From positions 1,792,001 to 1,856,000 of the forward strand of contig CM000154.2 of assembly GCA_000004695.1 (NCBI GenBank): DNA of 64,000 nt. Direction: 5' to 3'. The position numbers were made by a program, and so were the translations under genes. Within the stretch, counting starts at the first letter, position 1. Each line of letters begins with the position of its first letter. Positions 16,604 to 56,153 of the stretch are shown one piece after another. This DNA is from Dictyostelium discoideum. Lineage: Eukaryota. The notes below the pieces were generated by a model. It saw nothing but the letters and a program-made list of their open reading frames with translations. It made no database searches and was not told the origin of the DNA.

Positions 16604-16799
16604 GGCAATGAAGACGTTTCGGTTTTCATTGAAAAATTTTCATATGATTAATTTATTTAATTATGATTTTGATTGTGATTATGTGATAATGATGATGACA
16701 TTACATACCACCAATTTTTTATTTTTTTTTTTTTTATTTTTAATTTTATTTTTTTTTTTTTTATTATTATTTTTTTTTTTTTATGGGTTGAATAAACTT

Positions 16800-22291: not shown

Positions 22292-24948
22292 ATAATTATA
22301 ATCATTATGCATATTATATCTAATTACAAATAACTATTTAGAATTTCAAATGAAACATTAAGAAATCAACAACAACAGCAACAGCAGCAACAGCAGCAAC
22401 AGCAACAACAACAACAACAACAACAGCAACAAAATGAAAATGAGGGTAGTGGAGAAGGAGGAACAAATTTTACAACAACAACGACGACAACAACAACAAC
22501 AACAACAGCTAATACATTCATAAGTCATGGTAAAAGGAATAATATAATAAAGAACAATAGTGGAAGTGTTAGTGGTGTAATTAAAAATATAAATTCAAAT
22601 GGTACACTATCATCATCAATGAAAGTAAATGTAAAAAGAGCTGACCTTTTAATGAGCATATTATTAGATATCATCTATTTAATCATTATAAATAATAAAG
22701 ATGATGAATTATTTAAAGAAGAAATTTGTAAGTGGTGACCCCCCCCCCCCCCCCTCCCCCTATATATAAATATTTGATTATTTGTTATTAATATTTTTAA
22801 AATATAGTTGAATCATTAGAAGGATGTAATAATAATAATAATAATAATAATAATTATAATAATAATATTTTAGGTAAAAATAATAATAATGGTACAAATT
22901 GTGATAATCCAAATTTAATATCAATTATACTTCAATTATTAAGTGAATTTAATGAAATTGATGGTAATTTATATCCAATTAAAAAGATATTAATGGTACT
23001 TTGGAAATCATTAACCATTTTTATGGGTGGATTAGAGGATTTGGATAGATTGAAACAAGAGAGATTGGATAATGTTGGTTACAAAAAAGGTACTCCAAAA
23101 ACTAGGTCCTATGATATTTCAAATTTCATTAAATCAACACAACGTTATCATAGTCAATTAAAATCAAATTCAGTTTTACATAAAGTGAACACTCATTATT
23201 TAGGTACACCCAAAGAGTATAAAGATGTTGATGTATTTAGGTTACCTTTATCCCTATCGGATTCATTATCAGTCTTACAAACTAATCTATATCCACCTGA
23301 AAAAGTTAGAAAAGAAATTGGCATCAATTATTATAGTTTTAATAATAATGATACAATTACACCTCATACTCAATCTGATTATTTCTATAATACTAGTAAT
23401 ATTTCTTCATCAAAAAAACAAATTAAACCTAGAATTTTAATTGATAATCCTTCAAATTTTGAAAGATTTTATGTAAGTTTTATTTTATTTTATATTTTTC
23501 TAAAAAATATTTATTAATTTTTTTTTTTTTTTAAAAATAGTGTATGAATGTATCAAACTTTTCAAAAATTGTAATTATATTATTAAAGATATTATTAGCA
23601 GCAACACCTGTTGTAAAGAATTATACGGGACCAATTAATTTAATTGCAGAGATTGTAATAGATCAATCATCACCAGGTTCTTCTGCATCTTTAGTTGAAA
23701 CTATGCAATCTGCTATTGACTTTTTAAGACATAAAGAAATCATTTCAAAATCAACACTTGGTATATTATTATTAATTATTAAACATTCTAAATTTAATCG
23801 TATGTATTATTAAAATATTAAAATTAAAATAATGTTTATTTTATTAATTCTAAATTTTTTTTTTTTTTTATTTTTATTTTTTTTGATTAATAGAACATTT
23901 ACAATTTGAATATTTATCAAAGATTATGTATGAATCAAATGCATTGGTTTTATTATATAAATGTTTAAATCATGAATCAGTTGAAAAGTATTTATTTTCA
24001 CAAAATTATTTAAATAGTGAAGAGTATTTCAATGAAGAATCATTACCATCATCATCTGCAGCATCACCACCACCACCACCAATATTTCAACCATTAAATT
24101 GTAGTGGTAGTAGTATCAATAGTATTAGTAGTGGTGGTGCAGGTTGTGAAGGTGGTGGTGCTAATCCACCACCAGTGCAATTATTTGAAAATTATAAAAA
24201 TTTATTTAGTACAATAACAAGTTTAAAATTAATTCAAAAAGTTATGAAACATCATCCATCAAGAATTTCTTCTTTATCTGCTTCAAAATCTGCTGTATGT
24301 TATTTTATATATATATATATTATACTTTATTTTTATTTATTAAATTTAACATTTTAATATTTATAAATTATATTCTAGAATATTTTAAAAAAATATTGTT
24401 CAATTAATCATCCAATGATTAGATTATATAGTTTAAAAGTTATAAAGAATTTAGTACCATATCAAACAAAGAAATGGAAACAAATTAATATGAGAATTAT
24501 ATCAGATATTTATTTAGAAGTACCAATTCATATTAATGATAATTGGTTATTTAGTCATAATAGTGCAATCAATAATAATAATAATAATAGTAACAATAAC
24601 AATAATAATAATAATAATAATAGTACAAATAATGATAATGGTTTAACTGATGAACATGAAGTTACACTTCAAGAGAAAGTTGAAGAATATCATAGAGTAA
24701 ATTATGAACAATGGTATACAAATGATGGTTTAGATATGTGTTATAAAAATGATCATTCAATGGGTATTGGTATTTTTGATGACTTATTAAATTCATTACA
24801 ATTAACAACAGAAGAAAAACAAGCTATAGAAAATGATAGATTAGCTTACATTGACAAAGATGAAGGTTCCTCATTAATCTTTATGAATGATGCTTTAGAA
24901 GATGAATTATTATTTAATAAATGGAATATCCAAAAACCAAAATTTTAA
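21615..24948 (+). CDS. STRIP/FAM40/Far11 homolog (striatin-interacting protein, N1221 + DUF3402). Seven exons: 21615..21801, 21941..22214, 22342..22727, 22808..23472, 23541..23799, 23894..24294, 24379..24948. Total 2742 nt, 913 aa.
   Basis: Joins ORFs 21615.., 22027.., 22993.., 23544.., 23926.. and 24415.. through GT(A/T)(A/T)GT donors and TAG/CAG acceptors. All phases agree and the total is a multiple of 3. Colinear with human STRIP1: ELYSYSE~ELYSYTE, NKWRDLTD~KKWTELDT, IWYIAQGV~ILYVAQGT, KKILMVLWKSLTIFMGGLEDL~KKVLLLLWKTVLCTLGGFEEL, ILLKILLAATP~ALLKILLAAAP, LQFEYLSKIM~YQFEYMAQHL, KSANILKKYCSINHPMIRLYSLK~KSAPILKRALKVKQAMMQLYVLK. Confidence 0.82.
22225..22288. repeat. (TA)n of about 32 units inside STRIP intron 2
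   Basis: Directly visible, immediately after the CA|gtatgt donor. Confidence 0.95.
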
Positions 24949-52808: not shown

Positions 52809-54008
<1,200 letters not shown>

Positions 54009-54364
54009 TTATTAATTACTTTTTTTTTTCTTTTATAAATAATAAATAATAAAAAATAATAATAATAATAATAATAATAACAATAATAATAATAATAAAA
54101 AAAACTCAAAAAACATGTCAACATTTAAATATCAACAATAACAACACAACAACACATCTATTCATTTCCAACAATTAAAGTATCTTTCTCTTTTTTTTTT
54201 GAAAAAAAAATAAATTAATTAAAAAAAAAAATTAAAAAAATTAAAAAAATTAAAAAAAAAAAAACCAACTTAGTTGGTTTATTATTGAATTTTCTTTTCT
54301 GTTGAATTTTCTGATTTTATTTTTAGAATTTTCCATTTTTTCTTTGAACGTTGAATTCCAAAAT

Positions 54365-54376
54365 TAAACCATAAAT
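54365..54376 (+). promoter_or_regulatory. DUSE-like upstream element (TAAACCATAAAT) about 55 nt upstream of the U1 snRNA start
   Basis: It resembles the Dictyostelium upstream sequence element ([A/T]CCCA[C/T]AA) reported about 60 nt upstream of snRNA and class I RNA genes, as I recall it. It is one C shorter than the consensus. Confidence 0.35.
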
Positions 54377-54429
54377 GATTTTATTATTAATGTTAATTTA
54401 AATAGAGTTTAAACTTTTTTTTTAAAACC

Positions 54430-54596
54430 ATACTTACCAGTCATTATCAATATGTGATCATAAAGGCATATTTGATTTCAAAGATTTCAGACCATTGCAC
54501 TTTAAGGTTTGGTTTTTGTATGATCTTCCACAAAGAGGATTCAAGTGACAAATTTATGGTAGTCGTGGATGTTGCGCTAGCGCACTTCCACAACAC
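54430..54596 (+). ncRNA. U1 spliceosomal snRNA gene
   Basis: The 5' end AUACUUACC is the 5'-splice-site recognition sequence. Stem-loop I has the loop GAUCAUAAAGG (human GAUCACGAAGG, U1-70K site). Stem-loop II has the loop CAUUGCACUUUAAGG (human CAUUGCACUCCGG, U1A site). The Sm site is AAUUUAUGG (human AAUUUGUGG). A GC-rich terminal hairpin follows (GUGGAUGUUGCGCUAGCGCACUUCCAC). The gene is an island of about 45% GC in AT-rich intergenic DNA between ragA and bud13. Confidence 0.72.
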
Positions 54597-54676
54597 CCCC
54601 TAATTAATTTTAATGAAAAAAAAATAATAATAATAATAATACCCCAAATTTAGGAAGTGTTTATTTTTTTTATTTT

Positions 54677-54710
<34 letters not shown>

Positions 54711-54725
54711 TTATTTTTATATATA

Positions 54726-56153
54726 CTACATATCTTCAACACTCCAATAATAAGATTCTTCAGCTAAATTTTGATTTCTTGATTGTTTTGAGATGAATTC
54801 TTTTTCGAAACCATTACTACGATCAATACCATCCCATCTATAACCGGGTTTAATATTGAAACGATTTGAAGGATAAGGACCTTTGTATTCTGGTTTTTTG
54901 TCTATATCATTTTTATTTGATTTTTTTGATTTCTTTTTTCTACCACTACCACCACCTCCTCCTAGTAATGCCATTGGATCACCCCATCTATCTTTATCGA
55001 TTTGTTCACTATTTAAATCTTCATCATCGATGTATCTTGATAATGGTTTATTGATATCACGTTGAATACGTTCTCTTTCCTCTTCCTCTTTTTTCTTTTT
55101 AACTTTACCAATACCCCATTCCATATCTTTCTCTAATTCAATTTGTTCCTCTAATCTCTTTTTCTCGAGATCCATCTCTTTTTGTTTCTTTGGATCAACC
55201 TTTTTACCTGTAATTTTATCACGATATACTGTTTCTGCATTTCTACCCATCATTCTTTGTTGTTCTCTTAAAAATGTTTCCTTTTGTTCTTTATGTTTTT
55301 TATTCTCTTCTTCCTCTTCTTCTTCTTGTTCTTTTTTACTTTTAATTTCATCAAATGTTCTCTTTCTTGGTGGTGATAAATCTTCATTACTATTTCTATT
55401 TCTATTTCTTGGTGGTGATAAATCATTATTATTATTATTATTTCTATTTCTAGGTGGTGATAAATCTTTATTATTATTATTATTATTATTATTTCTATTT
55501 CTTGGTGGTGATAAATCATCATAATTATTGTTATTATTTCTATTTCTATTTCTTAGTGGAGATAGATCCTCATTGTTATTTCTATTTCTTGGTGGTGATA
55601 AATCTTCATTATTGCTACTACTATTCCTATTTCTTGGTGGTGATAAATCTTCATTATTATTATTATTATTATTATTATTGTTGTTGTTTCTATTTCCACT
55701 ATCACTTGAACTTTTATTTATACCAAATGAAATATTACTACTACCACCAATATTCTTTTTGGTAGTGGGAGGTTCAATCGTTATCCATTGTGATGTTGAT
55801 GATGTTGATGACGATGAAGAAGGAGGAGGTTTAAAATTGAATTGATCACTATTTACAATTAAAGGTTTATCATCTTCATCTTCTTCATTATCATTGTCAT
55901 CATCATAGTTATTGTTATTACTATTATTATTATTATTATTATTATTAAATTTATTTATTAAATTCTTTCTTTTATTTTCATTTGCATCTTTTGATATTAT
56001 TTCTTGTTGTTCATCTATGTCTACAATTTTATTACCTGTAGATACCAATACTTTCTTTTTCTTTTTTTTTTTTTCTTTATTACCGCCGCTTCTATTTGAT
56101 TCATCATTTGATTGTTCGTTTGGTGTTAAATATTTCTTTAAATATTCATTCAT
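54726..56153 (-). CDS. bud13: BUD13/CWC26 pre-mRNA splicing (RES complex) factor homolog, 475 aa, single exon
   Basis: The N-terminus is MNEYLKKYL (human ...KAEYLKRYL). The centre has about nine degenerate (N)[11 protein letters not shown] repeats (compare human DLSPPRR repeats). The C-terminus has [32 protein letters not shown] and [26 protein letters not shown]...YYWSVEDM*, near-identical to the BUD13 C-terminus. Confidence 0.85.

Follow-up and report, generated by a model that had tools for sequence, protein, structure and literature searches.

Between the 3′ ends of ragA and bud13 in Dictyostelium discoideum lies an interval that open reading frames (ORFs) leave unmarked, and the question it raises is whether it holds a functional U1 snRNA gene, a dead or secondary copy of one, or a fortuitous resemblance. 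The first-pass annotation, made from the letters alone, had called a U1 gene of 167 nt preceded by a DUSE-like box. The major spliceosomal RNAs of D. discoideum (U1, U2, U4, U5, and U6) have been identified with all required motifs present (PMC5173251, PMC3188802), U1 has been recovered in published CLIP data, and 17 snRNA genes are annotated in the organism (PMC11193728). The U1 locus examined here is a rediscovery of a known, published, and annotated gene. A D. discoideum U1 snRNA and the DUSE promoter were reportedly described in 2006 by Hinas et al. (Eukaryot Cell 5:924), and this U1 is also said to carry a trimethylguanosine cap. That the present sequence is identical to the one published in 2006 is something we infer from the organism and the family.

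A single U1 gene in the window

The window, i.e., the whole 64-kb stretch of DNA that was analyzed, was scanned against all 4227 Rfam families at their gathering thresholds. The sole family to exceed its threshold was RF00003 (U1), which matched positions 54430 to 54592 on the forward strand with 77.8 bits against a gathering score of 69.5 (E = 1.5e-17), covering the covariance model in full (positions 1 to 166 of 166) with a composition bias of zero. The first-pass annotation had itself named a score below the gathering threshold as the outcome that would tell against a U1 gene, and its call is supported by the full-length match. Its proposed extent needs adjusting at one end: the start at 54430 holds, and the Rfam match stops at 54592, giving 163 nt rather than 167 and placing the mature 3′ end between 54592 and 54596. 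No second U1 was found in the 64-kb window, even at E values up to 0.1. Two sub-threshold matches, to mir-598 (36 bits against 69) and MIR5020 (29 bits against 73), fall at 55797 to 55905 (both strands), in the part of the window that codes for Bud13; low-complexity, repeat-coding sequence there has almost certainly produced a hairpin by chance.

The G+C content is 36.5% in 54430 to 54596, compared with 14% in the upstream flank (54009 to 54429) and 10% in the downstream flank (54597 to 54725); this richer island and all of the RNA elements first listed for it were recovered at or near the positions originally given. No ORF of 50 amino acids or more overlaps 54009 to 54725, in keeping with the earlier remark that nothing in the ORF track points to the gene.

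The ORF on the forward strand that ends at 54008 is the last RagA exon (Pfam Gtr1_RagA, 4.9e-84), 100% identical to D. discoideum RagA, and the ORF on the reverse strand from 54726 to 56153, with its stop codon at 54726 to 54728, encodes Bud13/CWC26 (Pfam Bud13, 2.5e-42), which a homology search found to be 42 to 49% identical to fungal CWC26 proteins. RagA and Bud13 are therefore convergent, with the U1 gene between their 3′ ends, and both the Pfam matches and the ORF orientations uphold the location proposed at first pass. The proximity of U1 to the splicing factor gene Bud13 looks like a coincidence. TMEM120 adjoins RagA in D. discoideum, Cavenderia fasciculata, and Acytostelium subglobosum. 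The spacer between RagA and U1 also contains a perfect hairpin-forming palindrome, AACCAAC-TTA-GTTGGTT (54263 to 54279), which is not conserved in the relatives L001 to L003 introduced below.

The position between the 3′ ends of two convergent genes lends some credit to the idea that the match is a chance resemblance in a G+C-richer patch of the RagA or Bud13 3′ untranslated region. However, the RagA stop codon is 422 nt upstream of U1, with many AATAAA-type signals in between, conservation begins exactly at the U1 5′ end, and an E value of 1.5e-17 was obtained with zero composition bias. The RF00003 score and the conservation pattern effectively refute a chance origin, to which we assign a vanishingly small probability.

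Conservation of the locus across dictyostelids

The same neighborhood was retrieved from other assemblies by means of their RagA proteins, yielding a set of six taxa: D. discoideum, L001 (GCA_054859145.1), L002 (GCA_054859025.1), L003 (GCA_054859325.1), D. firmibasis (L009), and "D. cf. discoideum" (L010). The RagA protein of L001, L002, and L003 is identical to that of D. discoideum, the intergenic DNA is only about 40 to 60% identical, and their Bud13 proteins are 540, 520, and 526 amino acids long, respectively, compared with 475 in D. discoideum; the three look like distinct species-level lineages. A U1 gene lies between RagA and Bud13 in all five further taxa, with scores of 77.1 to 82.9 bits. 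A second, independent assembly of D. discoideum (L004) shares 99.4% identity with the window across 11.2 kb and does not differ from it anywhere in the U1 region.

The RagA neighborhoods of D. purpureum, T. lacteum, C. fasciculata, and A. subglobosum yielded no U1 at gathering scores, and those of D. purpureum, C. fasciculata, and A. subglobosum yielded none at E values up to 1 either; in the last two species, RagA is flanked by genes other than Bud13. Among the genomes sampled, the RagA-U1-Bud13 arrangement is thus limited to the discoideum/firmibasis clade.

Pairwise identity by segment was measured among four of the taxa (D. discoideum and L001 to L003), of which L001 and L003 form a near-identical sister pair (86 to 100% in every segment). 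Identity was 91 to 98% across the U1 RNA and 92 to 100% across a 12-nt upstream box, compared with 32 to 68% in the other upstream segments when the L001/L003 pair is left out. Over the first approximately 30 nt downstream (54593 to 54625) it was 66 to 91%, falling further downstream to 39 to 50%, again without the L001/L003 pair, which shares 86% there. With that pair set aside, the ranges narrow to 91 to 96% for the RNA and 66 to 86% for the first approximately 30 nt downstream. Read from these alignments, the pattern is the footprint expected where purifying selection acts on a gene and on a small promoter belonging to it.

RNA elements and secondary structure

All elements expected of a U1 RNA were located on the forward strand. 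The single-stranded 5′ end available for 5′ splice-site pairing, AUACUUACCAG, occupies 54430 to 54440 in the Rfam alignment and the taxon comparison. Its first nine nucleotides (DNA ATACTTACC, 54430 to 54438) correspond exactly to AUACUUACC, and nine of the first 10 agree with the 5′ end of the family, ACUUACCU. The register in which the U1 5′ end pairs with the 5′ splice site is well established, and the positions that face intron nucleotides +1 to +6 and exon nucleotide −1 are all intact. Helix H follows, its 5′ strand at 54441 to 54444 (nucleotides 12 to 15) pairing with 54545 to 54548 (nucleotides 116 to 119) in both the model and the taxon comparison; all four pairs are standard, and two of them alternate between U-A and U-G among the taxa with pairing kept.

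Stem-loop I, delimited by the model pairs, spans 54445 to 54477. Eight of the 10 positions in its loop, GATCATAAAG (RNA GAUCAUAAAG; 54456 to 54465), agree with the Rfam consensus GAUCAaGAAG; in other organisms this loop is bound by U1-70K. In stem-loop II (54478 to 54519), the loop core CAUUGCAC (DNA CATTGCAC; 54493 to 54500) is the U1A site in other organisms, and CAUUGCACU is exactly the Rfam consensus and invariant in all six taxa. Both protein-binding loop sequences, including the AUUGCAC expected in stem-loop II, are present and are invariant or nearly so in the six-taxon alignment. Stem-loop III (54521 to 54543) has eight standard pairs, with two one-sided changes among taxa that keep the pairing. 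Between helix H and stem-loop IV, where the family carries AAUUUNUGG, lies the Sm site AAUUUAUGG (DNA AATTTATGG; 54551 to 54559), which aligns to the Rfam consensus AAUUUgUGg and is invariant in the six taxa. Stem-loop IV (54565 to 54591) contains the palindrome GCGCUAGCGC (DNA GCGCTAGCGC; 54574 to 54583), forms ten standard pairs, and is also present in the single-sequence fold. The 5′ end, helix H, the four stem-loops, the U1-70K and U1A loops, and the Sm site are accordingly shared with the U1 family (RF00003) and the D. discoideum U1 of Hinas et al. 2006, as are the length of about 165 nt and, in the latter case, the organism; no essential difference was seen, nucleotide 10 being A where the family consensus and the five sister taxa have U.

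When helix H and the four stem-loops were mapped from the Rfam model, 43 of the 45 model pairs were standard; the remaining two are U-U and lie at the bases of stems I and II. Across the six taxa, 95% of the cells are paired, compared with 31 to 51% once the partners are shifted along the sequence. A standard pair is retained in each of the five one-sided stem substitutions (U-A/U-G or A-U/G-U). Nucleotides 20 and 44 form A-U in D. discoideum and "D. cf. discoideum" alone; the remaining four taxa have A-C there. No compensatory double change was found within U1 among these six, because they are too closely related; support for the structure comes from the family model, not from covariation within the clade, and the clade comparison adds little independent proof. 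The minimum-energy fold of the single sequence recovers the four hairpins, and in it the 5′ end is not free, being paired to the Sm region instead. As this fold is only moderately better than those of shuffled sequences (z = −2.36), the covariance-model score is the main evidence.

That score, only 8 bits over the gathering score, could be taken as a sign that the locus is a U1 pseudogene, a dead copy still resembling U1, and such pseudogenes are common in eukaryotes. The stems are rich in A-U and G-U pairs, which accounts for the modest score, and the orthologs in the related assemblies score 77 to 83 bits as well, which points to an A+T-rich lineage and not to decay. The match is, moreover, full-length, no functional motif is damaged, the promoter boxes have kept both their sequence and their place, and the 91 to 98% identity of the RNA against about 50% in the neighboring DNA argues for purifying selection. 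A pseudogene is consequently very improbable, and the locus can be regarded with high confidence as a functional U1 snRNA gene of D. discoideum.

The upstream DUSE-like box

The DUSE, with the consensus [AT]CCCA[AT]AA, lies approximately 63 bp upstream of dictyostelid noncoding RNA genes, including all spliceosomal RNA genes (PMC3188802), and is used by both polymerase II and polymerase III genes (PMC7919456). In Class I RNA genes of Group 4 species such as D. discoideum it has three consecutive Cs, and functional boxes with two Cs are typical of dictyostelid Groups 2 and 3 (PMC7919456). Upstream of the U1 gene, a 12-mer, TAAACCATAAAT (54365 to 54376), spans −65 to −54 and contains the box AAACCATAAA (54366 to 54375, forward strand), which is invariant in all six taxa. 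The first base of the 8-mer AACCATAA (54367 to 54374) lies at −63, which is precisely the distance published for the DUSE; in the five other taxa the 8-mer begins at −62 to −64. It agrees with the consensus at seven of eight positions, an A replacing the first C so that the box has two Cs, unlike the three of Class I RNA genes in Group 4; a strict search found no exact [AT]CCCA[AT]AA upstream of the U1 gene. The first-pass description of the box as DUSE-like and one base short was accurate, and both position and conservation support it, while its distance of "about 55 nt upstream" fits the 3′ edge of the box (−54) and not the start of the 8-mer.

The 8-mer AACCATAA occurs five times in the window, against 8.4 occurrences expected, and DUSE matches with at most one mismatch number 236 per 128,000 strand positions, giving a chance of approximately 1.3% that one falls within ±3 nt of −63. 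By itself the box is weak evidence, as its occurrence is not beyond chance. It becomes convincing because all six taxa keep it unchanged at −62 to −64, amid DNA that is only 32 to 68% identical.

Two exact copies of the strongest DUSE form, ACCCATAA, are present on the reverse strand at 16781 to 16788 and 23021 to 23028, and neither has a recognizable RNA or an Rfam match approximately 60 nt downstream on that strand. Long runs of A come after the first copy, and the DNA past the second is less A+T-rich and lacks long runs of A or T. Both are probably chance matches, since the count of the motif in the window is below expectation.

TATA-like box and other flanking elements

A second upstream element is a TATA-like box, TTTAAATA (54397 to 54404, forward strand), at −33; the pattern T[AT]TAAA[AT] recurs at −33 or −34 in all six taxa, and this conservation suggests a promoter function. 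Together with the DUSE-like box it would make up a two-element promoter, and the two-C DUSE at −63 and the TATA-like box at −33 are, judged by their conservation, promoter bases under selection. Plant snRNA promoters consist of a USE plus a TATA box, vertebrate ones of a PSE with or without a TATA box, and an snRNA 3′ box is also known. Like the plant and animal genes, the D. discoideum gene has a proximal element (about −55 to −70), another near −30, and a short conserved block immediately past the mature 3′ end, but it shows no sequence match to the PSE or 3′ box consensus. In the literature examined, the TATA-like box at −33 falls outside the definition of the DUSE.

The U1 RNA contains an internal T5 run (54513 to 54517). 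Such a run would terminate polymerase III, so transcription by polymerase II is most likely, as for U1 elsewhere.

Past the 3′ end, a conserved block, CCCCTAATTAATTTTAATGAAAA (54597 to 54625, forward strand), stands out in the alignments; it may be a Dictyostelium snRNA 3′-end signal and is a candidate for directing 3′-end formation. On the upstream side, TTGAATT(T)(T)C occurs three times (54285, 54302, and 54351, at about −145, −128, and −79; spanning 54285 to 54313 and 54351 to 54359) and is partly conserved. Related motifs of the form TG(T/G)TG(A/G)A(A/T) lie around −88 to −100; a further set at −130 to −140 is missing only from D. firmibasis and "D. cf. discoideum." The upstream TTGAATT-type motifs could be an enhancer-like element or chance occurrences in A+T-rich DNA.

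Nucleotide 10 distinguishes D. discoideum from its relatives

Nucleotide 10 of the RNA (54439) is A in both D. discoideum assemblies, the window and L004, compared with U in L001, L002, L003, D. firmibasis, "D. cf. discoideum," and the Rfam consensus. The normal partner of this U1 nucleotide is exon position −2 of the 5′ splice site. Only 2 to 11 candidate GTAAG sites at exon-to-intron composition steps were found in the window, one of them being the complement of U1 itself, which is far too few to assess a bias toward U at position −2 that would suit the A.

An A confined to D. discoideum, set against a U in five sister taxa and in the Rfam consensus, might mark a variant or minor U1 copy, that is, a specialized or weakly used isoform, with canonical U1 genes elsewhere supplying the bulk of the RNA. 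The snRNA genes of D. discoideum often occur as several related copies (PMC7919456), and the count of 17 snRNA genes in this organism (PMC11193728) would leave room for such genes. However, the locus is orthologous to a U1 gene in the same place in five relatives, with fully conserved promoter boxes, and apart from nucleotide 10 the D. discoideum and "D. cf. discoideum" sequences differ at only one position within the Rfam match. Related snRNA genes are also reportedly paired closely, yet the window holds no other U1 at E values up to 0.1. A variant copy is on this evidence quite improbable, although less so than a pseudogene, and the gene between RagA and Bud13 is better read as a functional U1 gene in its own right.

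A broader proposal is made more tentatively: that a U-to-A change at nucleotide 10 has become fixed in D. discoideum, that the gene is driven by a promoter of a two-C DUSE plus a TATA-like box, and that the downstream block is a candidate 3′-end signal. As a whole it is rather unlikely to be correct. The A at nucleotide 10, the two-C DUSE in a Group 4 species, the 54597-to-54625 block, and the TTGAATT repeats may be new, or are at least unmentioned in the literature examined.

Proposed mechanism and significance

The analysis itself establishes that the sequence and structure belong to the U1 family, that the RNA and both promoter boxes are under purifying selection, and where in the genome the gene lies. 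For the polymerase, the cap, protein binding, and expression, the following account draws on the literature and on analogy with U1 elsewhere. RNA polymerase II would start at or beside 54430, directed by the DUSE-type box AACCATAA at −63 and the TATA-like box at −33, and the transcript of approximately 163 to 167 nt would fold into helix H and the four stem-loops. An Sm ring would be loaded on AAUUUAUGG, and the cap would be added and then hypermethylated to trimethylguanosine. The loop of stem-loop I would bind U1-70K and that of stem-loop II would bind U1A, and the free 5′ end AUACUUACC would pair with GUAAGU-type 5′ splice sites, beginning spliceosome assembly.

As a discovery the locus carries little weight, since U1 and the DUSE were described in 2006 and the gene is in the standard annotation. 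That a noncoding gene was spotted without tools, even though an ORF track cannot display such genes, is a useful validation. What the six-taxon comparison adds is a set of selected promoter bases, a candidate 3′-end signal, and a species-specific A facing exon position −2. If the U1 with A at nucleotide 10 is the only or main U1 of D. discoideum, 5′ splice-site recognition in this species would be one base pair off that of its closest relatives, and this could measurably shift which exon-end sequences splice efficiently.
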